A DNA stretch of 64,000 nt. It comes from Planctomycetaceae bacterium (GTDB taxonomy: Bacteria > Planctomycetota > Phycisphaerae > Phycisphaerales > UBA5793). Position numbers and translations under genes: made by a program. Of this stretch, positions 2,971 to 44,382 are shown in pieces. The stretch covers positions 487,017 to 551,016 of the forward strand of contig JBDZVA010000002.1 in assembly GCA_040255465.1 (NCBI GenBank), given 5' to 3'. Position 1 is the first letter of the stretch. Each line of letters opens with the position of its first letter. The notes below the pieces were generated by a model. That model made no database searches and had not been told where the DNA came from. It saw only the letters and a program-made list of their open reading frames with translations.

Positions 2971-3019
2971 TTCGACTCCGCGCGAGGGGCAAGCCCTCGC
3001 GCGTCGCTCATGGCAAGCC
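2971..3019. repeat. GC-rich hairpin / REP-like element immediately after tmRNA
   Basis: Perfect 10-bp stem CGCGCGAGGG (2979-2988) / CCCTCGCGCG (2994-3003), flanked by TTCGACT and TCGCTCATGGCAAGCC; no U-tract. Confidence 0.5.
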
Positions 3020-22471: not shown

Positions 22472-23272
22472 CTAGCGGAGATCGAAGAGTCGATTGTCCG
22501 CAGTTGCGCCAAACCATCCGATGTGCAAATCGCGCATCTGCGATTCGGTGACGCCGTAGATGTTGCCCTTCGTAAACGAGAGTTCGCGACGGGCCACGTG
22601 GCCGTCCGCCCAACCGACGTTGGCCGCGCCGGCATGGCGGAAGTGAATGGACGGATCCAGAGGATACGGCGAGTCGCGCTGCAGTGGAGGCTCGGCAAAG
22701 CTGTACTCGATCAATCGCAGAGTCGGGACCGGCATGGCCAGAGCCGTGTCGGCGAACAGAACCGTTTCATCGGGGCGCGCAATGGCGGAGCATCGCACGC
22801 CGACTTGATCGCCGTCATCGCCCACGCCGATGTACGCATTGTTGTACCCGTAGCCGCCGCAGCCCGCCTCAAAATCCATCTGTTCGTTGCGCGGCCCGGG
22901 CACGAAAGAAGGACACTGACGCACGGCGCCCTGAGGTCCCAAATGGGGTGACAGTGGCCCGTTCCGAGGCTCGAACGCATCGCGCGAATGGGGTCGCGTC
23001 CCGAACCAGCGATCGAGATTGCGCTCGAACCGGGCGGCGCCCGGCACTAACCGCCCCGCGTTTTCGTTTGAGTACGCCAGATTTGCGAGGACGAGCTGGC
23101 GGAGATTCGAAGCGCACGCTGCGCTGCGCGAAGCGTCTCGCGCTCCGCGCAGCGCCGGCACGAGTAGACCGACAAGCAGTGCGACCACTCCCATCACGAC
23201 GAGCAGTTCGATGAGTGTGAACCCCTGGTCGCTCCCGACTGATCGAGTTGGTCTTCGGCTCATGGAGTTCAC
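22472..23272 (-). CDS. Prepilin-type N-terminal cleavage/methylation protein with H-X9-DG motif (DUF1559-like)
   Basis: [10 protein letters not shown] leader, CASNLRQL, and [12 protein letters not shown] (exact H-X9-DG). Confidence 0.92.
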
Positions 23273-24171
23273 CTCACCGCGGCCACGCCGCCGATTTCCG
23301 CCGACACCTCGCCGAATGGCCCGTTCTGGGCATCGACCGCAGTCGTAATGCGAACAAAGTCGATGCCGCGCAGATGTGCCGACTGACCCGTCAGCGGATC
23401 AACCGCCCAGGCAATGTCGAACCCATCCCCGCCACCGCTGCCCGGCGTGATGCCTTCGATGCGAGGATCATCAGGCACGGTGTAGAAGTCCTCCGGTCCC
23501 AGGTTCGGATCATCGATGATGTTGTCCGCGTTGAGGTCGCCGAGCAGCAGCGTGGGGTTCATGTCCGCGTATCCCCAGAAGGCTTCGCTGCCGTCCGTGT
23601 TCGTGTTGAAGATCGGCGGATGGCCGAACGGCTCGTCGGGCAGAATGAAGTAGCCGTCGCGCCGCTGACGCTTCGGGTCGGTCAGGTGCGAACCGGGAAT
23701 CACGAACCAGGGGTCATCGGCAAGCCCGTTGTGATTGGCGTCGTAACTGACCTCGACCACCGCCGCCTCTGCCCATCGGATCGATGGGAGCCCGATGAGC
23801 CAGGACGCATTGCCAAAGACGATGAAATCCAGTCCCATGGGGTGGTCGGCGTCGTCCCAGATGGTCTGATCAAAGCCAAGAGTAATGGACCCCCCGAACC
23901 CGCCGAGCGTGACGAGCTTGAAGTTGTCGGGTGCGATCGTGCCGCCCCCGATCGGCGCGCCAAGCGCCCTTTGCGAATCGTTGTACAGCGGGTCGTTTGT
24001 AAACTGGCCGGGCGCGGGAGAGTAGTCGATGACGCGCGTCGCGAAGGGCGAGTGCCTTCCGGCGCCGGGTGCGATGGCACGCCACGGTGGATTGGCGGCA
24101 GCGGCCGGAGTCATTGTCGCACTGAGCATCAGTGTTGCGGCCGCGAAGACGGTAGAGTTACGTCGCATCAT
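23269..24171 (-). CDS. Secreted protein resembling Bacteroidetes cell-surface proteins of B12 loci (BtuH-like candidate)
   Basis: Signal peptide; [54 protein letters not shown] and IDFVRI motifs. Family link is from recall and not searched. Confidence 0.65.
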
Positions 24172-25243
24172 GGCGGCTCCCGTCCCGACGCCGCCGCCGA
24201 ACCAGGAAACCAGTCCCCATCGTCAGCACCAACAGCGTGCCCGGTGCGGGAATCGGAGCATAGCGATAGAGCGTGAATGAGGAACCGGAGGCGATCAACC
24301 ACTCTCCCGTAACTTCATTGAACATCGCGCCATAGAAGCTGAACGGCTCAGCTTCCGGATCATCCGTAAACAGATCGGGCCAGTCGAGGGCGCCCAGTCC
24401 GTCAAATGCTCGGCGGACCGCCGACCCGTCCGCGAGGGCAAAGTAGTCGATGGCTCCTCGGTCGAAATCGCCGCCGCCGATGAATAGCTGGCCCGCTGAG
24501 TCGAACGAGAGGCCCGAGGCGGAAAGCACGCGACCAATGTACTGGCCTGAAGTGGCGAAGTCGATCACCCCCTGTTGCCCGCTGAGCACTTCCGCGAGGT
24601 CCGCGGCACGAAATGCGCGGATGTCTCCAATATCCGATCCACCCGGGATGAAGTCGTAGCCGTTGCCGGTAAAGAGATTGCCCTGCCCATCGAAGGCGAG
24701 CCCGCCCGAAGCGCCGTCGAGGTTGAGCACGAGTGTTGACGATCCATCGACGAGATCGAGGATGCGCACTTCGCCGAGGAACGTGCCCGGGTTGGCGGCG
24801 GTGATGGCCAGGCGATTGTTGTCGTACCACGCCGCGGCGTAGTTCTCGTGTTCAAACGCGCGATGCGAGATCGGCCCGCCGTTGAGATCGGAAAGCGCAG
24901 CCTCGAATACGTGCGCGCCGCCGAAGTTGCCATCACCGACGACGAATCGCGTCCCATCCGGGCTCACCGATAGAAACGATGCGCCATACTCGCTGATGAG
25001 CCCGGGATCGAAAAAGCCCATCGTGGTGAACTGCCCCGAGGTCGGAGCCGTCTCGATGAGCACTGAATCGCCGTCAATGCCAATCAGCCGGCCATCTACT
25101 AGTACGTCAAACGCTCCGCCCGGCCCTTGCTGGTTGCCGACGTAGCGCAGCGGTGGGGCGGCCGAGATTGCCGCAGTGTTGATCGAGCACATGATGAGCG
25201 CCGCAAACCGCGGCGCCCATCCCGCAAAGGGAAACGCAGGCAT
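24158..25243 (-). CDS. PEP-CTERM-type sorted surface protein, probable beta-propeller
   Basis: Signal peptide; repeated blade-like motifs (LSVSPDG, LAFDGQGNLF, LSFDSAGQLF); C-terminal IPAPGTLLVLTMGTGFLVRRRRR. Confidence 0.8.
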   Translation of the reverse strand: MPAFPFAGWAPRFAALIMCSINTAAISAAPPLRYVGNQQGPGGAFDVLVDGRLIGIDGDSVLIETAPTSGQFTTMGFFDPGLISEYGASFLSVSPDGTRFVVGDGNFGGAHVFEAALSDLNGGPISHRAFEHENYAAAWYDNNRLAITAANPGTFLGEVRILDLVDGSSTLVLNLDGASGGLAFDGQGNLFTGNGYDFIPGGSDIGDIRAFRAADLAEVLSGQQGVIDFATSGQYIGRVLSASGLSFDSAGQLFIGGGDFDRGAIDYFALADGSAVRRAFDGLGALDWPDLFTDDPEAEPFSFYGAMFNEVTGEWLIASGSSFTLYRYAPIPAPGTLLVLTMGTGFLVRRRRRDGSRHDAT

Positions 25244-25439
25244 CTTTGAAACTCCTGTCTGTCACCTCTGATCGCGAGAGGTGGTTCCTGGACACAACCG
25301 GCGACACGGCCGTTCTCGCCGAGTCGGGGTCGAGCCTCTGTCAGGAACAAACAGAAGTCGAGAGCCGCGACGTCCCGGAGCGCGAGGACGACCAAGGAGA
25401 GGTTCCGCGATCGCGACCCGTTGCGATCGTGGCCTCGTG

Positions 25440-25675
25440 CCAGTGGCAGGTCTTCCGGCTCAGAGTCTGGTCTCGCCCGACCGCCTTCCCATCCTTTTTC
25501 TCATCCGGAGAGGGATGAGGGACAGTGGCGTTGTGGTCGGCCGATGCCCCAGGGAAAGAACCCCAGGGCGACCCATTACGGCGGCGCGTCCGCGGTGGAT
25601 TTGCACCACGCTTCCCATTTCAGCCTCTGTCATTCGCGTGGCTCAGCCACCGCGAACGGCTCGGGCACCATTGAC
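25440..25675 (-). ncRNA. Cobalamin (B12) riboswitch
   Basis: Minus strand: GGTGCCC...AATGGGAAGCGTGGTGCAAATCCACCGCGGACGCGCCGCCGTAA...GCCACTG...GGGAAGGC...GAGCCGGAAGACCTGCC (B12 box). Confidence 0.95.
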
Positions 25676-25680
25676 TCGCC

Positions 25681-25709
25681 ACTCTACCGGCAGTCTGCCT
25701 CCCGGTCAA
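25681..25709 (-). promoter_or_regulatory. Sigma70 promoter of the riboswitch operon
   Basis: TTGACC-N17-TAGAGT, ending just upstream of the riboswitch 5' end. Confidence 0.75.
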
Positions 25710-25767: not shown

Positions 25768-25796
25768 TTGACACTGAGGCCTCCAGTCGATACATT
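25768..25796 (+). promoter_or_regulatory. Sigma70 promoter for the HEAT-repeat gene
   Basis: TTGACA-N17-TACATT. Confidence 0.75.
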
Positions 25797-25917
25797 CCGT
25801 TCTTACGATGACGCAACTTCCGGCTGTGACCGGGGGTTGCGCCTCATGGGCGACCAGGGGCTTGCGGACCTTCGGTCGTTGCGTGCTGTTTCCACCCCCC
25901 TTTGGCGGAGGTTGCCT

Positions 25918-28083
25918 GTGTTCTACACGTCACTGCGCCGACTGTGCCTGCTCGGCCTCATCGTCTGCTGTCTCGGCCTCGTCACCAACGTGGTCGCGCA
26001 GCCCACCGGACAGGAAACCAAGTCCAAAGAAGCAGAACTGCTCGAGGACTTTGTTCACTACGTTCTCGTCGCCAGACCCGAACTCGCCCATAGCGCTGCT
26101 CAGGCGCTCGTCGAATCGAGCATCAGCGATGCGGATCTGTACATGCTCGTTGACGACATGGGAATCGGAAAGCGCATTGATGACGCGCTCGTCCGGGCCG
26201 CCCGCATCGCGGAACTCGAAGAGATCGCCGGAATGCTGCAGAGTCGTTTGAACAAGGGCCGCATTGATATGGCCCGCGATCCTGAAGAGATTGCTCGCCA
26301 TATCCAGAATCTGGTTGGCACGCCGCGCGGCCGCTTGATGGCGGAAACCGCTCTCAAGTCCGCAGGCGAGTACGCTGTCCCGCAACTGCTCGATGTGCTC
26401 ACCGGCACGAACTCGGCGGAACTCAAGGCCCGCTGCACCCAGGTGCTGCTCAACATCGGTCGTCAGGCCGTCACGCCGCTGACCGTCGCGCTGCCTCACC
26501 TTGATCCGGTGAGCCAGGAGCGCATCTGCGACATTCTCGGCCAGATCAACTACTTCCATGCGGTGCCCTCGCTTCGCACATTGATGGAAGACAGCAGGAC
26601 GACCCCCGCCGTGCGGACCGCCGCGCGAGCCGCCGCCGATCGCCTCGGTGCGGTGATTGATGCCGAACCTGTACAGATGTGGGTTTCCCTGGCGGAACTG
26701 TATTGGGGCGAGTCCGAGAGTCTCATCGCCTGGCCGTCCGAAGCGACCAACAACATCTGGTACTACAAGAATGGCACAGGTCTCTACGCCGTTCCGGTGC
26801 CGACGCAGATCTTCTCTGAAGTCATGGCGATGCAATGTTCGGAGCAGGCCCTGAAGCAGTCGGCGAATTCGCTTGACGCCCTGAGCATGTGGATCGCCGC
26901 GAACTTCCGTCGCAGTGATGAACTCGGCGATGGTGTCGACCCGACCTACGGACCAAACCGTCGACCGCCGCTTTATTACGCAGTCGCGTCCGGCCCCGCC
27001 TCCGCGCAGGTGGTCCTCGAGCGGGCCAATCGTGATCTCAACGCCCGTCTGGCCCGTCACGCGATCGAGGCGTTGAGCGGCACGGCGGGCGGCTCGAGCT
27101 TGTGGCTCGGCAACAACCGTCCTTCTCCGCTCATTGAGTCGCTCGAATTCCCCGAACGCCGCGTCCAGTACGATGCCGCGCTCGCTCTGGGCCGGGCGCT
27201 TCCCATGGAGACCTTCGACGGCGCCGATCGCGTGGTGCCGATTCTGGCTGGCGCGATTCGAACGCGCGACGAGCGCTTTGCCGCCGTCATCGCCGAGAAT
27301 CAGGAAGACCAGCGCAGCCTCGCGTCCAACCTTCGTGATATGGGATTCACCGTCTTGCCGCCCCGCTCGACCTTCGCGGGCATGCAGGCTGATCTCGCCG
27401 CAGCGCCGGCCGTCGATCTCTTCGTGCTGATGATTTCGCCGGACCGTCTGCTCGACACCATCGCGTCGATCCAGGCCGATGAGCGCATCTCGGCGTCGCC
27501 GGTGGCGGCGCTCGTCGCCTCGCAGGATGTTCCCAAGGTTCGGAACCAGTTCGATAGCAATCGCCGAGTGGCGGTCATTCGCCTCGGTTTGCAGCAGGCG
27601 CAGATGGATGCAGCCCTGCAAGCGCTGATTGGCCGCACGACAGGTGAACTCATCACCAAGCAGGAAGCGGATGCGTATGCCGATGAGTCGCTGCACGTCC
27701 TTCGCGACATTGCGGTGCGGAACAGCGCGGCCTACGACATCAAGCGAGCGGAGACGGCGCTGGTGGAGGCCCTCTCGACGTATTCCGGGGAACTTCGACT
27801 GACCGCCGCCCAGACCCTGGCGTGGGTCAACGGTTCTCGGGCTCAGTCGGCTCTGCTGACTGCATCGCTCGGGGAAACCGACGAAGCGGTCCAGATCGCC
27901 ATGCTCGACTATGTCGCGCAATCCGCCCGGCGGTATGGGTCGTACGCCAGTGAGGCGCAGATCCGATCGCTTGTCAATCTCGTCAAGACCGCCCGAGGTC
28001 CGGTAGCCACCGCGGCTGCGCAGGCCCACGGCGCGCTCAATCTGCCGGCTTCCAATATGGTCCCGCTGATCATCTCCAACTGA
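25918..28083 (+). CDS. Large secreted HEAT-repeat protein
   Basis: GTG start with GGAGG RBS; signal peptide; HEAT-like repeats (AVPQLLDVL, AVTPLTVAL, AVPSLRTLM, VQYDAALALG). Confidence 0.8.
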   Translation: MFYTSLRRLCLLGLIVCCLGLVTNVVAQPTGQETKSKEAELLEDFVHYVLVARPELAHSAAQALVESSISDADLYMLVDDMGIGKRIDDALVRAARIAELEEIAGMLQSRLNKGRIDMARDPEEIARHIQNLVGTPRGRLMAETALKSAGEYAVPQLLDVLTGTNSAELKARCTQVLLNIGRQAVTPLTVALPHLDPVSQERICDILGQINYFHAVPSLRTLMEDSRTTPAVRTAARAAADRLGAVIDAEPVQMWVSLAELYWGESESLIAWPSEATNNIWYYKNGTGLYAVPVPTQIFSEVMAMQCSEQALKQSANSLDALSMWIAANFRRSDELGDGVDPTYGPNRRPPLYYAVASGPASAQVVLERANRDLNARLARHAIEALSGTAGGSSLWLGNNRPSPLIESLEFPERRVQYDAALALGRALPMETFDGADRVVPILAGAIRTRDERFAAVIAENQEDQRSLASNLRDMGFTVLPPRSTFAGMQADLAAAPAVDLFVLMISPDRLLDTIASIQADERISASPVAALVASQDVPKVRNQFDSNRRVAVIRLGLQQAQMDAALQALIGRTTGELITKQEADAYADESLHVLRDIAVRNSAAYDIKRAETALVEALSTYSGELRLTAAQTLAWVNGSRAQSALLTASLGETDEAVQIAMLDYVAQSARRYGSYASEAQIRSLVNLVKTARGPVATAAAQAHGALNLPASNMVPLIISN

Positions 28084-28122
28084 ATCGTCGGCTCGGACCG
28101 GTAACTGAGAATTGAACCCTTG

Positions 28123-28152
28123 AGCACGCAGGCCGCATGGCCTGCGTGCTTT
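28123..28152 (+). terminator. Stem-loop after the HEAT gene
   Basis: Perfect 12-bp stem AGCACGCAGGCC-GCAT-GGCCTGCGTGCT with a short T-tract. Confidence 0.6.
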
Positions 28153-28521
28153 CATATGGCCTGTTCCGGGTGAGCGGTGACGTCTCAATACACGTCTATG
28201 CGCACAGACGACAGAGTTCACCCCGGCTTGACGTCCAGCTCTGCAGTTGGTTTGCCGCCCGACCGATTGAAAACGATGATGTATCTCATGTCCACACTCC
28301 ATTCGTGCGTGAGGGGTACTCGCTCGCCTGGTATCGCGAGTGAGAATCCGTTGAGCGGCTCCGGCGCACGGTGTCTTGGTGGGGAAGACACCGGCTCCGG
28401 ACCTTGCCTTGTCGGGCGTCATGTGACTCCCGGGGCAGTTTCTTCATCTGTGTCCCGCGGCGTCGGTCCGTCAAGGCGGTTCACACGAGCAGGTTCGGAC
28501 CTTTTTGTGAAGGAGTCATCG

Positions 28522-28971
28522 ATGATTAAGGTGAGAAGTCGAACGAAGGGCTTTACGCTGGTTGAAATTCTGATCGTGGTCGTGATTCTCGGCATCCTCG
28601 CCGCGATCGTGATCCCGCAGTTTACCAATGCCAGCCAGGAAGCGTCTGCATCTTCGCTCTCGAGTCAGTTGCAGACGGTTCGCAGCCAGATCGAGCTGAT
28701 GCGCGTCAAGCACAACGGGTTCATGCCGGACTTCTCGGCTGAACAGTGGGTGCCCCTGACCGATCCCTCGACCTACAACGGCGCGTGGACCGAGGGCGCT
28801 TACCTCCAGTCCGATCCCATCAATCCGTTCACGGGCAATTCGCTCATCGTTGCCGGCAGCGATCCGCTGACGGAAGGTGATCCCGCGACGGATGGCTGGC
28901 TGTGGGATGACGCCAACGGCCGTATCTACGCCGTCGGCTTCGACGAGATCAACAAGCTCTACAACCGATAA
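28522..28971 (+). CDS. Major pilin/pseudopilin (GspG/PilA-like)
   Basis: KG|FTLVEILIVVVILGILAAIVIPQF; AAGGAG RBS; followed by its own terminator. Confidence 0.92.
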   Translation: MIKVRSRTKGFTLVEILIVVVILGILAAIVIPQFTNASQEASASSLSSQLQTVRSQIELMRVKHNGFMPDFSAEQWVPLTDPSTYNGAWTEGAYLQSDPINPFTGNSLIVAGSDPLTEGDPATDGWLWDDANGRIYAVGFDEINKLYNR

Positions 28972-28993
28972 TGTTGTCTGAGCAGATCCATTC

Positions 28994-29028
28994 AGAGGCG
29001 GCAGCGGAAACGCTGTCGCCTCTCTTTT
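28994..29028 (+). terminator. Rho-independent terminator after the first pilin
   Basis: AGAGGCGGCAGCG-GAAA-CGCTGTCGCCTCT followed by CTTTT. Confidence 0.85.
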
Positions 29029-29080
29029 GTTCGAGTGGTGGATTCGTCACGGAACACCGCGTGACGTGGAGCCCAACGCC

Positions 29081-29509
29081 ATGTGCATGAGTCATCGACC
29101 AACCTCTCGGGCCTTCACCCTCATTGAGATTCTCGTCGTTGTGGTGATTCTGGGGATCCTGGCGGCCGTCGTCATTCCGCAGTTCACCAACGCCAGAGTG
29201 GAAGCATCGACCTCAACTGTCAAAAGCCAATTGCAGACAGTGCGTGGCCAAATCGAGGTCTACAAGGCCCGTCACAGCGCGTTGCCGCCCTTTGGGACCA
29301 CTGGGACCGCCGCCGATTGGGATCCGCTTGTGAACCCGCCCGATGAAGTCATCTATCTGCAGGCCGCGCCCTATAACCCGTTCACAGGGTCTGCAGGAAT
29401 CGGCACCGTCGACTCAATTGACATCGGATGGGTGTGGGATGACGTCAATGGAGTGATGAGCGCACCGTATTTTGACGAAATCACCAATACGTACAACCCA
29501 CCGGGCTGA
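29081..29509 (+). CDS. Pilin/pseudopilin 2
   Basis: RA|FTLIEILVVVVILGILAAVVIPQF; paralog of the 28522 pilin. Confidence 0.9.
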   Translation: MCMSHRPTSRAFTLIEILVVVVILGILAAVVIPQFTNARVEASTSTVKSQLQTVRGQIEVYKARHSALPPFGTTGTAADWDPLVNPPDEVIYLQAAPYNPFTGSAGIGTVDSIDIGWVWDDVNGVMSAPYFDEITNTYNPPG

Positions 29510-29613
29510 GTCCTGGCGGGATCGACCATCGGGCCGGAAAACCCACAAGCATCGCTCTCGACATGCTGTGGAATCCCGATGGGCGGCGTGCGATGGAGTG
29601 GCCGATGCCCGGT

Positions 29614-30153
29614 ATGCGAATCCAGACTGGTCTTGAGCATCGTCGCGATCGACGCGCGTTTACGCTCGTCGAACTGGTGATCGTCGTGCTCATCATCGCG
29701 ATTCTCGCGGCCATTGTGGCGCCTCGATTCTCCGGTGCTTCGGATCTCGCAGGAAGTTCGGCACTGCTCCAGGACCTGCGGTACATTCGCCAACAGATTC
29801 AGGTCTACCGCGCGCAGCATTTCGGCGTGTCGCCCGGCTATCCCGGCGGCGATCCGAACGCGACGCCCTCCGAAGCCGACTTTGTCGCGCAGATGACCAA
29901 TCCGACTGCCTCCGACGGCTCCGTAGGAACCAGTTCGTCGCAGACGTTCCGCTTCGGACCGTACATGGCCGAGATGCCCATCAATCCGATCAACAGCTCA
30001 AGCGCCGTCATGGTGGTGCCCAACGGCTCGCCGCTGCCGCCACCGCCCACGGGTCCGTCGGTGTATGGTTGGCTCTACAAGCCGGAGACACTCGAATTCA
30101 GGCCATACGTTGCCGGTCAGGATGAGAATGGTCGTGCGTTCTTCGACTATTGA
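29614..30153 (+). CDS. Pilin/pseudopilin 3
   Basis: RA|FTLVELVIVVLIIAILAAIVAPRF; FGPY...MPINP. Start approximate. Confidence 0.9.
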   Translation: MRIQTGLEHRRDRRAFTLVELVIVVLIIAILAAIVAPRFSGASDLAGSSALLQDLRYIRQQIQVYRAQHFGVSPGYPGGDPNATPSEADFVAQMTNPTASDGSVGTSSSQTFRFGPYMAEMPINPINSSSAVMVVPNGSPLPPPPTGPSVYGWLYKPETLEFRPYVAGQDENGRAFFDY

Positions 30154-30811
30154 GTCCTCGCCTGCTCGGCTCAACTCCAGACGAGCCATCGCGTGGGGTG
30201 AAGCCCTCACGCTTCTCGCCCTGTCGTCGTTCATGGCGATCTCAGTGGTGGTGATCGGACCGCGGCTGCTTCGGGGCGCCTCCCTCGCTTCTTCATCGGA
30301 AACCCGACTGAGTGCCTCTCTGCTCGAGCAGGAAACGACGCTTCGCACCCTGCTGCGGAAGTCCTCGTCGATCCTCGCCATTCATTTCACCGAGCCGCAC
30401 GCCGCGCAGCTCGACACGCTCGTGCTCTGGGTGTCCGATGACCGGTACCCCGGTCGGGTCAATCTCTCCGAAGTGCTGGTCATTCGCTTCAGCCCGCTGC
30501 TGCGAAGCGTCATCGCGTACACCTGGTCGCCGGATGCGGAACTCGACTCGGAGGTGGCGGGCGCGGATCTGCGAGATCTGCATCGCCTCGAGGAACTGGC
30601 CGGAAGATCGGACGTTGTCCGCGCCGTGATCGCTCAACCGGTTCTGGCCTGCGAGGTTACCGGAATCTCAACGGCCCAACCGGTACGTCCGGACACATCT
30701 GACGGGCCGCTCGGGTTGATGCTTACCTGGTTTGACGAATCTACCGATAGTCGCGATGTGAGCACGATTCGGACGGAACTGCACCTGCTCGATCGGTCCA
30801 ACCGGTTCTGA
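30128..30811 (+). CDS. Hypothetical protein, possible degenerate minor pilin
   Basis: RRA|IAWGEALTLLAL resembles a class III leader with E5; sits between pilin genes. Start uncertain. Confidence 0.55.
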   Translation: MVVRSSTIESSPARLNSRRAIAWGEALTLLALSSFMAISVVVIGPRLLRGASLASSSETRLSASLLEQETTLRTLLRKSSSILAIHFTEPHAAQLDTLVLWVSDDRYPGRVNLSEVLVIRFSPLLRSVIAYTWSPDAELDSEVAGADLRDLHRLEELAGRSDVVRAVIAQPVLACEVTGISTAQPVRPDTSDGPLGLMLTWFDESTDSRDVSTIRTELHLLDRSNRF

Positions 30812-30864
30812 ACGGCGCCTCGAGGTCGGTTTCCCGTCCGCTTTCAATCCACAGGAGGGGCGTC

Positions 30865-31149
30865 ATGCGCCGAGCCAAGTATCTCAATGCTGTTCTAACC
30901 GTTAACGCGGCTGCTCTGTGTCTGTTGGTCGCCATGTTTGCGCTGGATCGAGGCACGCTGGCTCGCCCCGCGATGGCGAGCGAACAGCAGTTCGGCATCC
31001 CGGATGCCGCAAGTCAGCGGCTTGAGATGATCCGCGAGTTGCGCCGAATCTCGGCGAGCATGGAAACTCTGCGCAAGGACCTCGAGCAGCGCGAGTTCAA
31101 CGTCAAGGTGACGTCGATGCCGCCGGTGCGCGTTGAGAACGAGAAGTAG
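30865..31149 (+). CDS. Small membrane-anchored coiled-coil protein
   Basis: AGGAGG RBS, N-terminal hydrophobic helix, heptad-like C-terminal half. Confidence 0.75.
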   Translation: MRRAKYLNAVLTVNAAALCLLVAMFALDRGTLARPAMASEQQFGIPDAASQRLEMIRELRRISASMETLRKDLEQREFNVKVTSMPPVRVENEK

Positions 31150-31193
31150 TCCAATCGTCACGCCAGGGTGTTGGAGGTACGGAGCAGTTCCAC

Positions 31194-31748
31194 ATGGTCT
31201 CCTTTGCGATCAATCAGCGGTGCAGCCGAACTCGACGGGCGTTCACGCTCATCGAGATTCTCATCGTGGTAACTCTCATGGGGATTGCCGCAACCATGCT
31301 CATTCCCAACATGAGCCACGCGGTCAGCTTCGAAACTGAAGCAGTTGTCCGTCGAATCGTCGCGGACTTGTCATTTGCGCAATCTGACGCGATGGCGCAG
31401 CAGGCGCCGCGCCGCGTGCTGTTTGCGGACAACGGCAGCGGCTACCGCATCCTCGCCTCTCCATATGACCCCGACAATGACGTGCTCTACGACCCCATTT
31501 CAGATGGCGGATCGGATAAGTACATCGTGGATTTCGTCACGGACAGTCGCTTTCGAATGGTCTCCATCGCCGACGTGAACTTCGATGGAGGGAATCACTT
31601 CATCACGTACGACGCGATTGGCGGCCCGATCAACGGTGAGAACACCTCAAGCATCGGCGGCTCGCTCGTCGTCAACGGCAGCGATGGGAGTTACCGGATC
31701 AGCGTGAGCGGCTTTACGGGTCGAGTATCCGTCGAGAAGCTGGAGTAG
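31194..31748 (+). CDS. Minor pilin (GspH/FimT-like)
   Basis: RA|FTLIEILIVVTLMGI; DLSFAQSDAM; C-terminal ISVSGFTGRV. Confidence 0.85.
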   Translation: MVSFAINQRCSRTRRAFTLIEILIVVTLMGIAATMLIPNMSHAVSFETEAVVRRIVADLSFAQSDAMAQQAPRRVLFADNGSGYRILASPYDPDNDVLYDPISDGGSDKYIVDFVTDSRFRMVSIADVNFDGGNHFITYDAIGGPINGENTSSIGGSLVVNGSDGSYRISVSGFTGRVSVEKLE

Positions 31749-31788
31749 CGGTGGGCGGCAAGTGCAAACGTGAGAAGGAGCACCTCGG

Positions 31789-32964
31789 GTGAGATGGAAC
31801 ATCCTGAACAAGGCGGCATTGCCCATCGGTGTGGACATCGGCCACAGCGGCGTCAAGTTGATGCAACTTGATGACGACGGAAGCGCCCTGCGCGCCTCGG
31901 CGGCGGCACGCAAATCCTTCGGCCGACCCTTGCCCGAAGAGCCCGTGCAACGCAAACTCGAAATCGAGCGAACATTGCGCGCCGCGCTCGAAATGACGCA
32001 ATTCAAGGGCGACTCCTGCGTGCTCGCGCCGAGTCCTTCCGATCTGATGATCCGAGCCGTCCGCCTGCCGTCCATGACGGATGACGAGCGGCAGAAGGCG
32101 GTTCAATGGGAGGCCTCGGAGCGCTTTGGAGTGCCGATGGACGAACTCCAGGTCGAGTGGATCCGGGCCGGCGAAGTGTCTCAGGGCCACGATACGCGCG
32201 ATGAGGTGATCTTGGTCGCCGCACGCCGCTCCGTGCTGGACACCTATCTCGAAGCGGCAATCGGCGCCGGCTTGCGGCCGATGGCGGTGGATGCTTCGTT
32301 TCTTGCCTCGGCCCGCAACCTCACCCGACCGCTGCGTCGCCAGGAGGACCAGTCTGTTGTTCGAATGATTATCGACGTCGGGCTGAGTCTCACGACCGTC
32401 AGCATCACCCGCGGTCGGGAACTCGCTTTCATCAAGCCAATCGATATTGCCGGCAAGGAATTCAACAAAGCGGTCTCCGACCGACTGAGCTTGGATGATG
32501 ACGCCGCCCGGCAGTTGCGCATCGAGAGGATGTCGCAGGATGACGAGCAGGGCGGGAATGATCGCGTGAGTCGCGCTGCATTCGAGGCGATCCGTCCGCT
32601 GATGCACGAGTTGGCGCAGGAAGCCGCTCTCTGCCTGCGCTACTACAGCGTGACGTTCCGCGGGGCTCGACCGGACTTTGTGAGCATCATCGGCGGTGAC
32701 GCACGTGAGCCCAAGCTCGCCGCGGTTCTCGCCGAGCACCTGAAAGTCGACGCTCGCGTCGCCAGCCCACTCGACGGCATTGACGTTACCGCAGCCGAGA
32801 TGAGGCTGGATCGGCGTCACGCGTCGCTCACCGAATGGGGGGTCGCGGCGGGATTGAGCATGCGGCCGGCATCCATGTTTCAATCCTCGCTCGCGGGCCG
32901 AGCCCTCGCCATTGGCTCCAAGCGGAAGTCGACGGCGCCTGAACGAAAGCGAGGTGCGGCGTGA
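31789..32964 (+). CDS. pilM: Type IV pilus assembly protein PilM
   Basis: PIGVDIGHSGVKLMQL, IIDVG and IIGGDA actin-like motifs; precedes PilN/O-like genes. Confidence 0.88.
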   Translation: MRWNILNKAALPIGVDIGHSGVKLMQLDDDGSALRASAAARKSFGRPLPEEPVQRKLEIERTLRAALEMTQFKGDSCVLAPSPSDLMIRAVRLPSMTDDERQKAVQWEASERFGVPMDELQVEWIRAGEVSQGHDTRDEVILVAARRSVLDTYLEAAIGAGLRPMAVDASFLASARNLTRPLRRQEDQSVVRMIIDVGLSLTTVSITRGRELAFIKPIDIAGKEFNKAVSDRLSLDDDAARQLRIERMSQDDEQGGNDRVSRAAFEAIRPLMHELAQEAALCLRYYSVTFRGARPDFVSIIGGDAREPKLAAVLAEHLKVDARVASPLDGIDVTAAEMRLDRRHASLTEWGVAAGLSMRPASMFQSSLAGRALAIGSKRKSTAPERKRGAA

Positions 32965-33650
32965 ATCGCCAGATCAACCTCATGCCCGAATCGTATCGCG
33001 AACGGTTGGGAAACTCCCGCCTGCGTCAACAGCACACAAACTATGGGCTGATTGCAGCCGTCATCATTGGCGTCCTGGTCGTCCACTCTCGATTCGGCGT
33101 CGGTCGCATGAACGCGCTGGCGAAGGAACTCACCGGCAAGGTCGCGGAACTCGAAGCGGTTCGGGCCGAATCGCTCGATCTCAATCGCAAGGCCGATGTG
33201 CTTGCCAAAAACCTCGAGAGCTACTACCGCCTCGCACTGCCTATTGAAATCACGGATGTGCTGGGGCTCATCAGCCAGGAGATGCCCGAGGGACTGTACG
33301 TCACTGATTTCAACATGGGCGTGTCACAGCGCAGTGAGTCCATGTCGGCGATGGAGGAACTTCGCCAACGCGTGAATCGCTCCAAGAGCCGCAAGGTGGA
33401 TGATCGCCGTCAAGTGCGCTATCTCTCGATCGATCTGACCGGCCTCGGCATGGACGGCGTCAAGGTGGCCGACTTCATCGGCCGGCTCGAGTCTCAACCG
33501 GCCTTTGGTCGCGTCCAACTCGATTTCGATCGCACCAAGAGTGTCGGCGGCTTGACGGTCCGCGAGTTTCGCGTGCGTTTCGAGATCGATCTCGAGAATC
33601 GATTCGTGGCGGGCGCTGATCCATCGAAGGGAGAACCCAGCGATGAGTGA
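32961..33650 (+). CDS. pilN: PilN-like protein
   Basis: N-terminal INLMP motif, TM helix, coiled coil, MPEGLYVTDF. Confidence 0.85.
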   Translation: MNRQINLMPESYRERLGNSRLRQQHTNYGLIAAVIIGVLVVHSRFGVGRMNALAKELTGKVAELEAVRAESLDLNRKADVLAKNLESYYRLALPIEITDVLGLISQEMPEGLYVTDFNMGVSQRSESMSAMEELRQRVNRSKSRKVDDRRQVRYLSIDLTGLGMDGVKVADFIGRLESQPAFGRVQLDFDRTKSVGGLTVREFRVRFEIDLENRFVAGADPSKGEPSDE

Positions 33651-34203
33651 ACTCATGGGTCGGATCAAGTACAGCGCCATTCTCATCGGAGTCAGTGGAG
33701 CGGCCTATTTCGCGCTCGTGCGACCCGCTTACCAGACGAGAGCCGCCGTCCTCGCGGACATCCAGGCGCTGAACAACAGAGTCGCGCAGGCGCAGGAAGA
33801 CTTTGACGCGCGGGATCGCGCCCGCCGGCGCCTGGCGGACCTGCAGTCCCGGCTGGCGGCGGAGACGAAGCCCATTCCCGACTCGGGAGACGTTGCGGGG
33901 GTAATCAGCGGCATCTCGTCTGACATTCGTGAACTTGAGCTGAGCGGGGCCAAACTCAACCGCGGCAAGGATTCCGCTGTCGGATCTACGGCCAGCAGTG
34001 GGTTGTTGATCGAGACCACCGGGCAATTCGATGTGATCGTGGAGCTGCTCCGCCGCATTGAGCGGCTGCCGCGGCTGGTTCGCATCAGTTCGCTTGTCGC
34101 TCAGAATGTGAATCGCGAGACGGGTGAAGTCAAGGCGACCATCGGGCTGGACGCCTACTACCGCATTGCGGGAGAGACGGCGTCAGTGCCGACCAAGCCG
34201 TGA
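33643..34203 (+). CDS. pilO: PilO-like protein
   Basis: TM helix, coiled coil, and GQFDVIVELLRRIERLPRLVRI. Confidence 0.85.
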   Translation: MSELMGRIKYSAILIGVSGAAYFALVRPAYQTRAAVLADIQALNNRVAQAQEDFDARDRARRRLADLQSRLAAETKPIPDSGDVAGVISGISSDIRELELSGAKLNRGKDSAVGSTASSGLLIETTGQFDVIVELLRRIERLPRLVRISSLVAQNVNRETGEVKATIGLDAYYRIAGETASVPTKP

Positions 34204-34217
34204 GGAGGAGGCCGAGA

Positions 34218-34817
34218 GTGAACGAAGATTTGCAACGTCTTTGGATTCGCATGACTTCGGATCGTCGCAAGTTCAGCATCATGTGCGGGCTGGCGGTCGT
34301 CGGATTGCTGCTTTGGGCCCGGCTGTTGCTGCTCAATGATGTGCCTCGCACCGGACTCGCTGACCCGATTGGCTCGGCGTCGACTGCGACGACTCCGACG
34401 TCCGAAACGAACGAAGCAAAGAAGCAGGATCGACCTTCGATCGAGTCGGCGCCCGTGGTTTATCTGGACGCCTCCACCAGGCTGGCGCGCAATTTTTTCA
34501 AAGTGCCGGAGGCAATGTTTCCCCAGACGGAACAGGCCGCACCGGTTCACGACACTGCCCCCAAGTCACAAACGGATACGCCCGAAGATTCTGTGGAAGC
34601 GGAGCGTCAACGCGTTGGCGCCATTGAGGCCGAGGCGGCCAAGCTCCGCCTCGGAAGCCTGATCCTCGGAGCCGCACCGGCAGCGGTCATCAACGGCCGG
34701 GTCGTGCGCGAGGGCGGGCACATTGACGGATTCAGGCTTGAGCGTGTGCTCAAGCGGAGTGTGATCCTGCTGAAGGATCAAGTGCGGGTGGAACTGAAGA
34801 TGGACACTCCGGGATAA
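34218..34817 (+). CDS. PilP/GspC-like alignment protein
   Basis: TM anchor, linker, and C-terminal AAVINGRVVREGGHIDGFRLERV; positioned between pilO and the secretin. Confidence 0.65.
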   Translation: MNEDLQRLWIRMTSDRRKFSIMCGLAVVGLLLWARLLLLNDVPRTGLADPIGSASTATTPTSETNEAKKQDRPSIESAPVVYLDASTRLARNFFKVPEAMFPQTEQAAPVHDTAPKSQTDTPEDSVEAERQRVGAIEAEAAKLRLGSLILGAAPAAVINGRVVREGGHIDGFRLERVLKRSVILLKDQVRVELKMDTPG

Positions 34818-34860
34818 CGCGGTGCCAAAGCGCACCGACCTGGGGAGGGAGAAAGCAATC

Positions 34861-37383
34861 ATGTTGGACTGCACGAACGGGAAGTTCTTCTCGCTGGGTT
34901 CGCTCCGATCATATGGGTTGGTCTGTGCCGCCTGCGTTGGCCTGGCAAGCACGGCCTCGGCTCAGCTCGATCTCGATTCATGGGCCAAGGCGCCGCCGGC
35001 CACACCGGCCGCGAATACCGACACCGGAGAGGACCTCGAAGGTCAGGTGGCTGTCTCCGCCTACTCCACGGTCGATATTCATGTCCAGAACACGGATCTC
35101 GCCAAGGTGCTCCAGATGCTCAGCATCCAGAGCCAGCGCAACATCATCGTCTCCAAGAACGTCAGCGGCACCGTCAGCGCCGACCTCTACGACGTGACGT
35201 TCTTTGAGGCCCTCGACGCCATCCTCAACTCGAATGGTTATGGCTACATCGAGGAGGGCGCGTTCATCAAGGTGTACACCCTTGAAGAACTCCGGACCAA
35301 GAGGGAGGAGGCGCGCAAACAGGTGAGCCGAACCTTCCAGTTGAGTTATCTCAATGCGACCGACGCCTCGGTCTTCGTCACGCCGCTGCTCTCTGAGAAG
35401 GGCACGATTGCCATCAGCGCCGACGTGGCGGCCGGATTCAAGCCTGACGAGTCCGATGGCGGATCAGACAGCTGGGCAAACTACTCCACGATGGTGGTCC
35501 ACGATTTCGAAGAGAATATGGACGACATCGCCCGGCTCGTGGACGAACTCGACACCCGTCCCCAGCAGGTTCTCGTCGAGGCGACGGTTCTCCAGAGTTC
35601 ACTCAACGAAGACAATGCGTGGGGCATCGACTGGAGCATCCTGGCTGACGTCGACTTCCTCGACTTCGGCAACCCGCTCTCAACCGTGGACAACCTGCTC
35701 AGTGGCGCAGGCGACGGCGGCTTCCAGCCCGGCGACAACAAGGCGTTCGCGGGTCGCTCGAACGTCGGCCAGACGTCTCGCGCCGGCGGCTTGAAGATCG
35801 GCGTCATCTCCGATGACATCTCCGTCTTCCTGCGCGTGCTGGACGAAGTGACGGACACCACCGTGCTCTCGCGTCCGCGCGTCCTGGCGGTCAACCGCAA
35901 TCGCGGACAGATCCTCATTGGCCGCCGAATCGGCTACCTGTCCACGACGTCGACGGAAACGAGCACGACGCAAACCGTGCAGTTCCTCGATACCGGTACC
36001 CAGTTGATCTTCCGGCCCTTCATTGGCAAGGACGGATTCATCCGCATGGAGCTCAAGCCCAGCGTCTCGGAAGGCATCATCCGCGATGTGACCGGCAGCG
36101 ACGGCAGTACGTTCACGATTCCTGACCAGATCACCAATCAGCTGCAGACCAACGTCGTGGTCAAGGACGGTCACACGATCGTGCTCGGCGGCCTGTTCCG
36201 CGAGGAAACGACGCTCACGCGCCGCCAGGTGCCGATCCTCGGCGATATCCCCGTCATCGGGGCTGCCTTCAAAGGCAAGGAAGACGCAACGCGGCGCAGC
36301 GAGATCACCTTCCTCATCACACCGTCCATCATGAAGGACGAGGTGCTCATGGCCGAGGGCGATCGCGCCAACGAACTGGTCGACGATGCCCGGTTCGCGG
36401 CCCGCAATGGCGTGCTCCAGTGGAGCAACGACCGCCTGACCTCGAATCACAACCTGATGGCCCAGGAGGCGATTGCGGCCGGCGACTTTGAGCTCGCCCT
36501 CTGGCACATCGATCTCTCGCTCCACCTGCATCCGAACCAGCCGCTCGTCATCGAAATGCGCGAGCGCCTGCTCGGCAAGTCGGACAAGTGGTTCAACGGT
36601 TCGATGATGCGTCACCTCACCGACGAGCGCATCAAGTCAAGCATGGCGCCCGCCGGATTGGGCAACGAGACGGCAACGGCCCCCACAGGCTTTGCGACCG
36701 ACCCGCTCGTCGGATCCAAGCCCAGGTCGACCGGCAACGCCACGCCTTCGTCGAACAACACCAACGCGCCGACTCAAACGCCCACGGCGACGCCGGCGTC
36801 CAGCAACCAGACGACCCCCGGTGCAACACCGGCTTCCACCGAACCGGCAACGAAGAGCGAGTCGAAGCAGCAGTCCAGTTCGACCAAGTCCACACCTGGT
36901 TCATCGAAGACGGCTAGCGCATCCTCGACGCCCGCTGCCAAGCACTCCACATCTGCTGCAAACGCTTCGACACGCGGCAATGAGATTCAGTGGGGCGGGA
37001 CGGATGATCCCAACTTCATTGGCCTTGAGCCGTGGTGGGGCGAGTTTACCGCCGCCATCGGGCCCGATGGTCAGCAGGTCTGGGAGAGGACGCCGCCCAG
37101 CTACGGCGAGTCGAGCAACAGTGTGAAGATCAACCCGCAGGGTGACCCCTGTCTGATGGAAGCGCTCAACGGCGGCTCCCAGCGCCAGATTGCTCAGTAC
37201 AACGCCCAGATCGGCCAGACGCTGGCGATCTTTCAATCGCTCAGCCCCATGGGCACGCTCTACTTCGGCCCTGTCTTCTCCCAGTATCAGGCCCAGTACC
37301 AGGCGTGGCTCAATACCCAGCCCGTACAGCAGGGGTACGCCGAGGTGCCGACCGATGGCGAATTCAACGACCCCATCAAGTAA
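34861..37383 (+). CDS. Outer-membrane secretin (PilQ/GspD family) with a long C-terminal extension
   Basis: QVLVEATV, VLSRPRVL, DGHTIVLGGLF, VPILGDIPVIGAAFK and FLITP motifs. Confidence 0.93.
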   Translation: MLDCTNGKFFSLGSLRSYGLVCAACVGLASTASAQLDLDSWAKAPPATPAANTDTGEDLEGQVAVSAYSTVDIHVQNTDLAKVLQMLSIQSQRNIIVSKNVSGTVSADLYDVTFFEALDAILNSNGYGYIEEGAFIKVYTLEELRTKREEARKQVSRTFQLSYLNATDASVFVTPLLSEKGTIAISADVAAGFKPDESDGGSDSWANYSTMVVHDFEENMDDIARLVDELDTRPQQVLVEATVLQSSLNEDNAWGIDWSILADVDFLDFGNPLSTVDNLLSGAGDGGFQPGDNKAFAGRSNVGQTSRAGGLKIGVISDDISVFLRVLDEVTDTTVLSRPRVLAVNRNRGQILIGRRIGYLSTTSTETSTTQTVQFLDTGTQLIFRPFIGKDGFIRMELKPSVSEGIIRDVTGSDGSTFTIPDQITNQLQTNVVVKDGHTIVLGGLFREETTLTRRQVPILGDIPVIGAAFKGKEDATRRSEITFLITPSIMKDEVLMAEGDRANELVDDARFAARNGVLQWSNDRLTSNHNLMAQEAIAAGDFELALWHIDLSLHLHPNQPLVIEMRERLLGKSDKWFNGSMMRHLTDERIKSSMAPAGLGNETATAPTGFATDPLVGSKPRSTGNATPSSNNTNAPTQTPTATPASSNQTTPGATPASTEPATKSESKQQSSSTKSTPGSSKTASASSTPAAKHSTSAANASTRGNEIQWGGTDDPNFIGLEPWWGEFTAAIGPDGQQVWERTPPSYGESSNSVKINPQGDPCLMEALNGGSQRQIAQYNAQIGQTLAIFQSLSPMGTLYFGPVFSQYQAQYQAWLNTQPVQQGYAEVPTDGEFNDPIK

Positions 37384-37447
37384 CGCCGCCGGTCGGCGAT
37401 CGATCAAGATTTGAACCACATGCATCAAACAGGATGAGGCTGAACCC

Positions 37448-38686
37448 ATGAGCATTCCAACGACGATGAGAACTCTTGCAGCCGGATGCGCACTGCTGGC
37501 AATCGGCCTGACGGGATGCTCGACGAACACCGGCGCGGCCGGCAAAGCCCGAAGTGATGCACGCGAGCGATTTGCCAACGGCCGTGCGGAACTCGGGGCC
37601 CAGCAGGCGCGACAGGACTACGAAGTCGGCAACCTCAAGAATGCACTGTTCAACATCGAAGGCGCCATCACGCTCGACCCCGAGCAGCCGAACCACTATG
37701 TCATGAAGGGCCGCATTCTCATCGAGATGAACCATCTCGATCCGGCACTTCAGGCGTTCCGCAAAGCGATCGAACTCAAACCTGACCTCGGCGACGCCCA
37801 CTATTACGCTGGTCTCGTCTATCAGCGCTGGTCCGATCTGCCGCGTGCGGCCGATGAATACCTGGCGGCACTGCATACGAGTGTCTCCAACGCCGACTAC
37901 ATGCTCGCCGCACTCGAGACACTGATCTCGATGCGCCGCCTTGATGAGGCGGAGGCGCTGATCGAATCATCCCGTCCGCATTTCGAGAATAATGCGGCCG
38001 TCAGGCGGTCCCGGGGCCACCTGGCGATGCTGCGTGACCAGCCCGTGCTCGCCGCAGAACACTTCCAGAAAGCCTTGCTGCTCACTCCGGATGACAAGAG
38101 CATCGTGGAAGTGCTCATTCTCGCCTACATGAAGGCCGGCAACTTTGCCAAGGCGGAGTACTACCTCGATCAACTTCTTCGTGATTCCGCCTACGCCTCC
38201 CGTCCGGATCTGCGACATCTCAAGGCGTTGTGTCTGACCGCTGCCGATCGCCTGGTTGAAGCGCGCTCCACTTACCTGAAGCTTGTCGATGATGATCCGA
38301 GCGATCCTCAGATCTGGTTTGAACTCGGCAGCGTGGCCTACAAGCTCGGTGACATGCGCCGCGTGCAGAATGTCGTGAGTCGTACGATCGCCGTGTGGCC
38401 CACCCGATTCGAAAGCTACATGCTTCGCGGCATGGTGGCCGAGCACGACAATCGACTCGATGATGCGATACGAGACTACAAGCGGGCATGCTCGCTTCAT
38501 CCCGCGCATGAAGAGCCCTACATCCTGCTCGGCCTGGCTTTGCGGACCAAGGGGCAGAACGCCGACGCGGCTCAGGCTTTTGAGACCGCGCGGATGATCG
38601 CACCCGACAGTGAGCGGGCCCAGCGCCTCGTCACGCTGGCCGGCGTGGATACCGACTCCGAAATGAACGACTCGCTGAACCGCTGA
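37448..38686 (+). CDS. TPR-repeat lipoprotein (pilotin/PilF-like candidate)
   Basis: Lipobox LTG-C, many TPR units, directly after the secretin. Confidence 0.85.
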   Translation: MSIPTTMRTLAAGCALLAIGLTGCSTNTGAAGKARSDARERFANGRAELGAQQARQDYEVGNLKNALFNIEGAITLDPEQPNHYVMKGRILIEMNHLDPALQAFRKAIELKPDLGDAHYYAGLVYQRWSDLPRAADEYLAALHTSVSNADYMLAALETLISMRRLDEAEALIESSRPHFENNAAVRRSRGHLAMLRDQPVLAAEHFQKALLLTPDDKSIVEVLILAYMKAGNFAKAEYYLDQLLRDSAYASRPDLRHLKALCLTAADRLVEARSTYLKLVDDDPSDPQIWFELGSVAYKLGDMRRVQNVVSRTIAVWPTRFESYMLRGMVAEHDNRLDDAIRDYKRACSLHPAHEEPYILLGLALRTKGQNADAAQAFETARMIAPDSERAQRLVTLAGVDTDSEMNDSLNR

Positions 38687-38715
38687 GCACCTCGCAACAC
38701 AGAGGAGACTGGAGG

Positions 38716-40155: not shown

Positions 40156-40157
40156 CA

Positions 40158-40571
40158 ATGCGTAAGACAGGCCAAGGCGCCAAAGACGGGGCGAAGACGA
40201 GAATCCTGGTGGTGGATGATGAAACGTACATTCAGCACGTTGTTCACCTGAAGCTGTCCAACGCCGGGTACGAAGTTCTGACCGCCTCCGACGGCGAAGA
40301 GGGGCTTCAGACGGCGACGGAGGAACATCCCGACCTGATCATCACCGACTACCAGATGCCGTTCCTCACCGGCCTGGAGATGTGCCAGCGCCTGCAGCAG
40401 AACCCGGCGACAGCGTCAATTCCCGTCATCATGCTGACGGCTCGCGGATTTGCCCTTGATGATGCCGATCTGCGCTCCGTCAACATACTCAAGTGTCTCG
40501 GAAAACCCTTCAGCCCACGGGAACTCGTCGCCTGCGTGGCGGCGGCGGTGGGCGCGAAATCTGTTGCATGA
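40158..40571 (+). CDS. Single-domain response regulator
   Basis: ILVVDDE, ITDYQMP, MLTA and KPF motifs; no output domain. Confidence 0.93.
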   Translation: MRKTGQGAKDGAKTRILVVDDETYIQHVVHLKLSNAGYEVLTASDGEEGLQTATEEHPDLIITDYQMPFLTGLEMCQRLQQNPATASIPVIMLTARGFALDDADLRSVNILKCLGKPFSPRELVACVAAAVGAKSVA

Positions 40572-42223: not shown

Positions 42224-42555
42224 AACTGAAGTACGAAGATCACGACAAGATCTCCATCGTCTCCATCGACGGCGACATGACGTCGGACCACATCGACTCG
42301 TTCCGACGCACAGTCACCGAACGCATTCACAAAGGAACGCGTGATTTCGTATTGCAGATTCAGGGAATGACGTTCATCGACAGCGCGGGGCTCGAGTCGC
42401 TCCTCTGGCTGCAGGAGGCAGCCGCCGAGCATCTTGGACAGATCCGGCTCGTCGCGCCAGAGGACAACATCCGCAAGATCCTGGAGATCACCAGGCTGCA
42501 ACACCAGTTCGACATGCACGACGAAGTGACGGACGCGATTCGCAGCCTTCGCTAG
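42220..42555 (+). CDS. STAS-domain anti-sigma factor antagonist
   Basis: FIDSAGL with the conserved Ser; ILEITRL. Confidence 0.9.
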   Translation: MKLKYEDHDKISIVSIDGDMTSDHIDSFRRTVTERIHKGTRDFVLQIQGMTFIDSAGLESLLWLQEAAAEHLGQIRLVAPEDNIRKILEITRLQHQFDMHDEVTDAIRSLR

Positions 42556-42603
42556 AAAAGTAGAGCGCCGCCGGCCGGCATTCGCGGCCGCAGGGGGTAC
42601 GTC

Positions 42604-44343: not shown

Positions 44344-44382
44344 CACCATCTGTCGGGCGCGACGAATCTGGAGATCTGAACC

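Follow-up and report, generated by a model that had tools for sequence, protein, structure and literature searches.

The window analysed here is a stretch of 64,000 nucleotides from a Phycisphaerales bacterium (genome 4.55 Mb, 95% complete), and it contains, at positions 22,472 to 25,709, a three-gene operon predicted from its leader to be under vitamin B12 (cobalamin) riboswitch control. We conclude that this operon represents a real, class-wide B12 acquisition unit in which a pilin is the constant part. On balance, we read the operon as a system for pilus-assisted, TonB-independent cobamide import, in which a dedicated pilin would stand in the place of BtuB; that the pilin is a working part of cobamide acquisition, whether it imports cobamides or exports the binders, is a claim for which we have considerably more confidence. 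Import of B12 across the outer membrane is taken to require the TonB-dependent receptor BtuB (PMC13616437). The operon bears on two questions, namely the route of B12 import in planctomycetes and the function of the very large family of DUF1559-like pilins. Its elements, in the order of transcription, are:

25681-25709, minus strand: sigma70-type promoter-like site TTGACC-17-TAGAGT, with a predicted RNA start at about 25675, at the first aptamer stem
25428-25687, minus strand: cobalamin riboswitch aptamer, RF00174 (68 bits versus a gathering score of 31.5, E 1.2e-14, model positions 1-189)
25250-25359, minus strand: predicted expression platform, a long stem in which, by RNA folding, the AGGAG ribosome-binding site of the P0001 gene (25256-25252) is paired
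24158-25243, minus strand: P0001 gene, first of the unit, 361 amino acids
23269-24171, minus strand: P0002 gene, second of the unit, 300 amino acids
22472-23263, minus strand: P0003 gene, third of the unit, 263 amino acids from the ATG, or 266 from a GTG at 23272

RF00174 was matched in 143 of 151 Phycisphaerae genomes, mostly in one copy. From 150 listed riboswitch places (21 more are unlisted), six were dropped for having less than 2.5 kb of contig downstream, and the final set comprised 143 leader units from 122 genomes. A prepilin is encoded behind 119 of these cobalamin leaders, in 115 of the genomes. The synteny of riboswitch and pilin, for which a survey had been proposed in the first-pass annotation of this DNA, is thus conserved; the opposite outcome considered there, in which synteny would not be conserved and a dedicated btuB would lie elsewhere, is not what the genome survey found. 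Under a strict motif rule, with the pilin within 5.3 kb, 73 of the 143 cobalamin leaders qualify versus none of 12 thiamine pyrophosphate (TPP) leaders, and the same rule finds a pilin in 1.5% of random windows of the host genome. A general vitamin pattern, with pilins also behind TPP riboswitches, was rejected: none occurs in 30 loci within 1.5 kb, nor in 12 loci within about 5 kb. The 24 units that lack a pilin lead nrdD (3), nrdAB (3), genes for radical SAM proteins (3), cbiM (1), a BtuB-like receptor (2), cobamide salvage genes (4, one of them ending in a BtuB-like gene), a cut fragment (1), or binder-like genes unaccompanied by a pilin (7, of which three are truncated at a contig end). 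Because these are typical members of a B12 regulon, they support the riboswitch calls. Across the 119 pilin units the binders are BtuH-like in 65 and DUF4465 in 19, one or the other being present in 83; eight DUF4465 proteins have been reported to bind B12 (PMC13398666). The pilin is therefore the constant part of the unit across the Phycisphaerae, and the binders (BtuH-like, DUF4465/BtuJ) vary.

The same arrangement is seen when the survey starts from relatives of P0002. The pilin lies downstream of the BtuH gene in 68 of 80 such loci, four of the twelve exceptions end no more than 150 bases from the edge of a contig, and the riboswitch was found in 21 of the 22 loci scanned with Rfam. In three of the 80 loci a single open reading frame (ORF) encodes both the BtuH protein and the prepilin; in it the BtuH domain is followed by a linker, a hydrophobic helix, a basic stretch and the G/FTLIE prepilin, the slash marking the cleavage point:

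L063:5719-8976: single-ORF BtuH-prepilin
L067:5905-8979: single-ORF BtuH-prepilin
L074:5941-8259: single-ORF BtuH-prepilin

Cleavage of these polyproteins by prepilin peptidase would release two proteins, and it is their occurrence that ties binder and pilin together. Among 150 representative pilin matches, ten are at least 420 amino acids long and six of these carry a BtuH-like match. The pilin is the first gene after the riboswitch in 4 of the 119 units and also in L278. Two different subfamily-like pilins stand in tandem behind one cobalamin riboswitch in L182 (G007:C1:2465100-2472210), from a single-contig genome in which no TonB receptor was found.

P0003 carries a class III signal (G/F-x-x-x-E) followed by a hydrophobic helix; its cleavage site G/FTLIE exceeds the cut-offs of TIGR02532 (26.1 vs 16.3) and PF07963 (26.2 vs 21.2), and its H-X9-DG motif (residues 207-223) exceeds that of TIGR04294 (19.6 vs 19), so that both pilin signatures read from the letters alone are supported. 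Its placement in the DUF1559-type family held in part: P0003 is an H-X9-DG prepilin, but it falls just under the PF07596 gathering threshold (21.4 vs 23.3, over residues 41-66 only) and is therefore called DUF1559-like here. The structural model has a mean predicted local distance difference test score (pLDDT) of 86.7, and its 25 best fold matches are all pilins or pseudopilins, although weak ones (best Z 5.8, root-mean-square deviation 3.2, 121 residues aligned); Foldseek gave no match at E 0.001. The H-X9-DG/DUF1559 family, whose function is called unknown, has 68 paralogues in P. limnophila (PMC10632474), and the host genome encodes about 30 H-X9-DG/DUF1559-like paralogues including P0003. 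The B12-linked pilins separate from these. A subfamily profile gives P0003 141 bits versus 40.5 for the next paralogue in the host. When 88 distant riboswitch-linked pilins were used to train a profile and 29 linked ones were held out, the profile scored the held-out set at 65-112 bits and 29 unlinked host-genome paralogues at 43 or less; a profile of 58 pilin heads finds one strong match (79-190 bits) per positive genome, with paralogues at no more than 55. A member of the subfamily is present in 142 of 150 genomes, and the eight genomes lacking one include G045 and G119, where the riboswitch leads a BtuB-like gene. On these profiles, P0003 is a type IV prepilin of a separable, cobalamin-riboswitch-linked subfamily. 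The pilin tree, quickly made, unfinished and with long branches among the paralogues, does not establish a single origin. The paralogue nearest to the B12-linked subfamily (G000:C12:222023-223003, plus strand, 40-43 bits) has no cobalamin riboswitch.

By its sequence, P0002 is a secreted protein of the BtuH family, and the BtuH likeness noticed at first sight proves to be true homology. A single-sequence search matched PDB 8BLW (E 1.5e-21), whose chain B we take to be BtuG1, and 7BIZ (E 1.8e-14); a family profile of 50 sequences spans the whole domain (E 3.7e-25, chain residues 222-486). The reference for this domain is Bacteroides thetaiotaomicron BtuH2/BT1956, represented by 7BIZ, together with the H domain of BtuG1/BtuGH (PMC8941943, PMC13616437), and 7BIZ is BtuH2 with cyanocobalamin (PMC13616437). 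Residues Q56, F57, N121 and E135 of P0002 correspond to BtuH2 Gln333, Phe334, Asn399 and Glu406, and D203, S290 and E292 to Asp522, Ser582 and Glu584; Asp522 was mapped by eye through the WGY-x-D motif, and the numbering offset of 100 was derived in this analysis. P0002 thus keeps all five residues of the BtuH2 Na/Ca site, which hold the B12 phosphate, in addition to Gln333 and Phe334. The same positions are conserved among the relatives (N121 and E135 in 50 of 50, E292 in 49 of 50, D203 as D or E in 48 of 50, S290 as S or T in 50 of 50, Q56 in 35 of 39 ungapped sequences). Both the APGQF and the LGGFGG motifs pointed out earlier are present. It is likely, from this conservation, that P0002 binds cobamides. 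P0002 has no C-terminal anchor; many relatives end in a tail that by eye is dockerin-like or PEP-CTERM-like. The more distant partner families c1 and c2 have no direct PDB match to BtuH, and their relation to it is drawn from their partial matches with the P0002 profile.

P0001 is, on its structural model, a secreted six-bladed beta-propeller with a PEP-CTERM anchor, and likely acts as a surface tether or a second binder. The PEP-CTERM signature, as first annotated, is above cut-off (TIGR02595, 18.4 vs 16; residues 331-353, with motif, hydrophobic stretch and basic tail). The AlphaFold model (pLDDT 94.5) has six blades, as read from the strand list, and NHL, SMP-30 and PknD propellers head its list of fold matches (Z about 22). 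Atlas look-ups returned only unnamed or NHL/PEP-CTERM clusters. The earlier suggestion that the first gene is a BtuG analogue was not upheld, BtuG being a seven-bladed propeller (PMC13616437). BtuG was found neither among the sequence matches nor among the 50 listed fold matches, lists filled by generic propellers, so that this absence excludes nothing. The tie of P0001 to B12 is instead genomic, because its homologues sit in BtuH loci (55 of the 80), share an ORF with the BtuH domain in five of them, and lie next to BtuB-like receptors in two further records, whose labels are Bacteriovoracaceae and Thermodesulfobacteriota.

The host appears to need B12 from outside. NrdJ, MetH and the mutase MCM are over their profile cut-offs; searches of the host genome for MetE and CbiC found neither, and BLAST detected no CobS, CobU, CobT, CobQ, CobD, NrdB or NrdD. 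An unlinked BtuFCD-like ATP-binding cassette (ABC) transporter is encoded at G000:C9:165691-168382, all three of its profiles being below cut-off. As first annotated, the unit has no btuB, and no BtuB-like receptor was found in the host genome either. Its single TonB receptor matches a siderophore-type profile better than BtuB (190 vs 64 bits), and lies 95 kb from the riboswitch unit, without a riboswitch, in an unrelated cluster; four riboswitch-linked receptors elsewhere, in contrast, score best with TIGR01779 (183-337 bits), and for these reasons the host receptor is disfavoured as a BtuB. That cluster (L082:2994-19407, G000:C9 at about 601-617 kb) includes exbB, tonB and a sodium/solute symporter, as well as several repeat-rich secreted proteins that by eye are PQQ-type propeller-like. 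Across the class, none of 151 genomes passes the BtuB cut-off (TIGR01779), four score as BtuB-like at more than 170 bits, and any TonB barrel is found in 74. Among the 115 genomes with a pilin unit, 59 have no PF00593 or TIGR01779 match, including the single-contig genomes G007, G046, G049, G063 and G095; CbiC is found in none of these 59 and NrdJ in 58. Having NrdJ without CbiC, these organisms need an outer-membrane route for cobamides, and the profile searches located none among TonB receptors. In L043 and L064, from two other phyla, the binder pair of the present unit stands behind a riboswitch and a BtuB-like receptor, with no pilin; this swap, like the missing subfamily in G045 and G119, speaks for the import reading.

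Several observations weigh against the import reading, and some of them favour other explanations. The surveyed genomes are related and mostly assembled from metagenomes; they are non-independent samples. In L025, L071 and L032, the last with masked bases at that place, a BtuH gene has no matched pilin downstream. In five genomes of genus g167 (L276, L277, L279, L280 and L281), pilins of the clade of P0003 stand alone, with no riboswitch or binder nearby, and four of the five have no RF00174 match at all. In the three g167 loci that were read, the pilin lies upstream of a gene that by eye resembles one for an NHL-repeat protein. The stand-alone copies and the relatedness of the genomes would be expected were the pilin a hitch-hiker with another role, co-inherited with the riboswitch operon. 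We regard this as very improbable, since the link spans deep pilin clades, different binders and records labelled Hydrogenedentota, and since there are in-frame fusions to BtuH proteins and units that run from riboswitch to pilin with no gene between. Were the pilin nonetheless a passenger, the locus would reduce to a variant of the Btu locus. P0002 itself also departs from its model: the BtuH2 corrin-ring contacts Tyr475, His476, Tyr510, Trp511 and Trp577 have no clear counterpart. Trp577 aligns to P285, the other four fall within poorly aligned loops, and Phe401 aligns to S123 (F in 29 of 50 relatives; W124 adjoins).

Also weighing against import by a pilin, 56 of the 115 genomes with a pilin unit, and the host, have some TonB receptor. 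Only one of three control genomes passed the TIGR01779 cut-off, so that a receptor with a low score may still transport B12. Moreover, G008 (351 bits) and G134 (178 bits) carry a BtuB-like receptor as well as a pilin unit. The earlier proposal of a pilin instead of a TonB receptor thus stands for most Phycisphaerae, where the pilin takes the place of BtuB, but strict mutual exclusion of the two is rejected. The receptors, and in the host TonB and ExbB, leave room for the view that the operon makes a reservoir of B12 at the surface, or an adhesin, regulated by B12, with which the cell clings to B12 producers, while import proceeds by an unlinked TonB receptor, by a porin or by non-specific uptake into the enlarged periplasm. 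BtuJ1 has been described as an extracellular reservoir (10.1101/2025.07.01.662609), and a type IV-like pilus has been proposed for substrate attachment in Akkermansiaceae (PMC13174399); persistence of the g167 pilin without riboswitch or binders could be read in the same way. Nevertheless, we consider a reservoir or adhesin unlikely. The 59 genomes with no TonB receptor found, almost all with NrdJ and none with CbiC, speak against it; the pilin is near-universal in the class, with one strong match per genome, unlike variable adhesins; and the pilin head is rich in invariant residues, many of them invariant among 40 close relatives of P0003.

The clade of the pilin tracks the type of binder, P0003's clade going with c2, c3 and c7 and the others mostly with c1. 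This too counts against the import reading, as such tracking is expected for a partner or an export adaptor, or from plain co-inheritance. Possibly, the pilin belongs to a type II-like secretion system as a cargo-specific pseudopilin and exports or displays the PEP-CTERM- or dockerin-tailed binders, B12 entering otherwise. The binder-transmembrane-prepilin polyproteins would then co-produce cargo and adaptor. Furthermore, where the same binders stand beside a BtuB-like gene they start like lipoproteins, carry PKD domains and have no pilin with them, as would fit a sorting role for the pilin. Yet one pilin subfamily serves unrelated binder folds (BtuH, DUF4465, propellers), the pilin can directly follow the riboswitch, and 15 other PEP-CTERM-like proteins of the host (by a rough motif) were not seen to need a pilin, although no test of this was made. 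Under an export role, too, no outer-membrane route could be named for the 59 genomes in which no TonB receptor was found. We therefore hold export to be a possibility, less probable than not by a wide measure, but better than that of the reservoir or the hitch-hiker.

Under the import reading, which we prefer, low B12 would lead the leader to free the ribosome-binding site, and the three coupled genes would be made. P0002, for which homology is established and binding predicted, would take hold of a cobamide by its phosphate and nucleotide loop, and the PEP-CTERM propeller P0001, to judge from the fusions, may hold P0002 at the surface. In what is the weakest step, prepilin peptidase would cleave P0003, which could then become a minor subunit of a host type IV filament, take the cobamide from the binder and carry it through a secretin on retraction. 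The host genome encodes four PilT-family ATPases and seven secretins. The unlinked BtuFCD-like ABC transporter would finally provide passage across the inner membrane, to the benefit of NrdJ, MetH and the mutase. A PilT-family ATPase is encoded about 2.3 kb, or two genes, from this transporter (G000:C9:162399-168382, L225). More tentatively, and as a view that falls a little short of probable, the DUF1559-like pilin subfamily may itself be the cobamide receptor, TonB-independent and replacing BtuB class-wide, with B12 collected from interchangeable surface binders and pulled through the secretin by filament retraction; this estimate includes the extension to the paralogues. If true, the DUF1559-like paralogues, which number dozens in a planctomycete genome, would by extension act as uptake pilins, each for its own substrate, and so correspond to a repertoire of TonB-dependent receptors.

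The leader is likely a translational OFF switch. The five Shine-Dalgarno bases of the P0001 gene have a pairing probability of 1.0 in the folded leader, and the stem that pairs with them is also kept in L002 and L003, the two closest relatives. A terminator-like site was looked for in the leader and none was found; a transcription terminator was accordingly rejected and, with the Shine-Dalgarno paired, control is likely to be translational. The riboswitch, annotated earlier by eye, was recovered by the covariance-model scan as the single RF00174 match in the whole 4.55 Mb host genome. A sigma70 promoter had also been annotated and a matching site is present; taken alone it is not above chance (2 sites vs 0.8 +/- 1.1 in shuffles), but its -10 hexamer TAGAGT, 6 bases ahead of the first aptamer stem, is identical in L002 and L003. 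Neighbouring genes of the three overlap or adjoin, and 2 bases separate the last stop from that of the convergent hppD (TIGR01263, 418 bits), in agreement with the gene layout given at first. In one metatranscriptome (word share 0.05), five short contigs from a related strain cover the leader and the genes, which is no evidence of transcription or habitat.

How does the system compare with those described? The P0002 gene is a further member of the known BtuH family; for the system as a whole we found no described counterpart. P0002 is homologous to BtuH2 over the whole domain, shares the PAPGQF, GN, WGY-x-D and GE-x-S-x-E motifs, and likewise stands under a cobalamin riboswitch, but it lacks a lipobox and a PKD stalk, does not keep several corrin-ring contacts, and has a pilin and not BtuB as its neighbour. 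The Bacteroides Btu relay (BtuJ, BtuH, BtuG, BtuB, BtuFCD) resembles the unit in its riboswitch-led loci, interchangeable surface binders (BtuH, DUF4465/BtuJ, propellers) and propeller-BtuH fusions, and in the BtuFCD-like inner-membrane transporter found in the host genome. It differs in that the unit has no BtuB, as do most Phycisphaerae so far as was found, and a prepilin as its constant gene; in that P0001 has six blades versus the seven of BtuG; and in anchoring by PEP-CTERM or dockerin-like tails. With other planctomycetotal H-X9-DG prepilins (PF07596, TIGR04294), P0003 shares the class III signal, the long N-terminal helix and H-X9-DG, but it belongs to a separable riboswitch-tied subfamily and is under the PF07596 cut-off. 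Elsewhere, too, the pilin fold serves substrate acquisition: ComP, by PDB titles, is a minor DNA-binding pilin, Legionella PilA2 has a role in iron acquisition independent of PilT or PilD (PMC13170364), and Akkermansia MUL2 is proposed for attachment (PMC13174399). None of these, however, has to do with a vitamin or stands together with cobamide binders. We found no paper linking DUF1559-type or Planctomycetota pilins to cobalamin in a literature consulted mostly without subscription journals or supplements; the neighbourhood tables of PMC13398666 may mention prepilins.

Divergent from the riboswitch, the plus strand of the window at 25768-45606 begins with a strong promoter-like site (TTGACA-17-TACATT) and a gene for a HEAT-repeat protein, and continues with a type IV pilus or type II secretion cluster (PilM, PilN, secretin, PilB-type ATPase, PilC), within which three tandem pilins are encoded at 28177-30153. 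Opposite-strand upstream pilins were seen only in L002-L004 and L047 of the 80 loci; because they are so rare, the adjacency of the pilus cluster is probably not part of the module. The window also contains, at some distance from the operon:

2621-2973, plus strand: tmRNA gene (RF00023, 161 bits)

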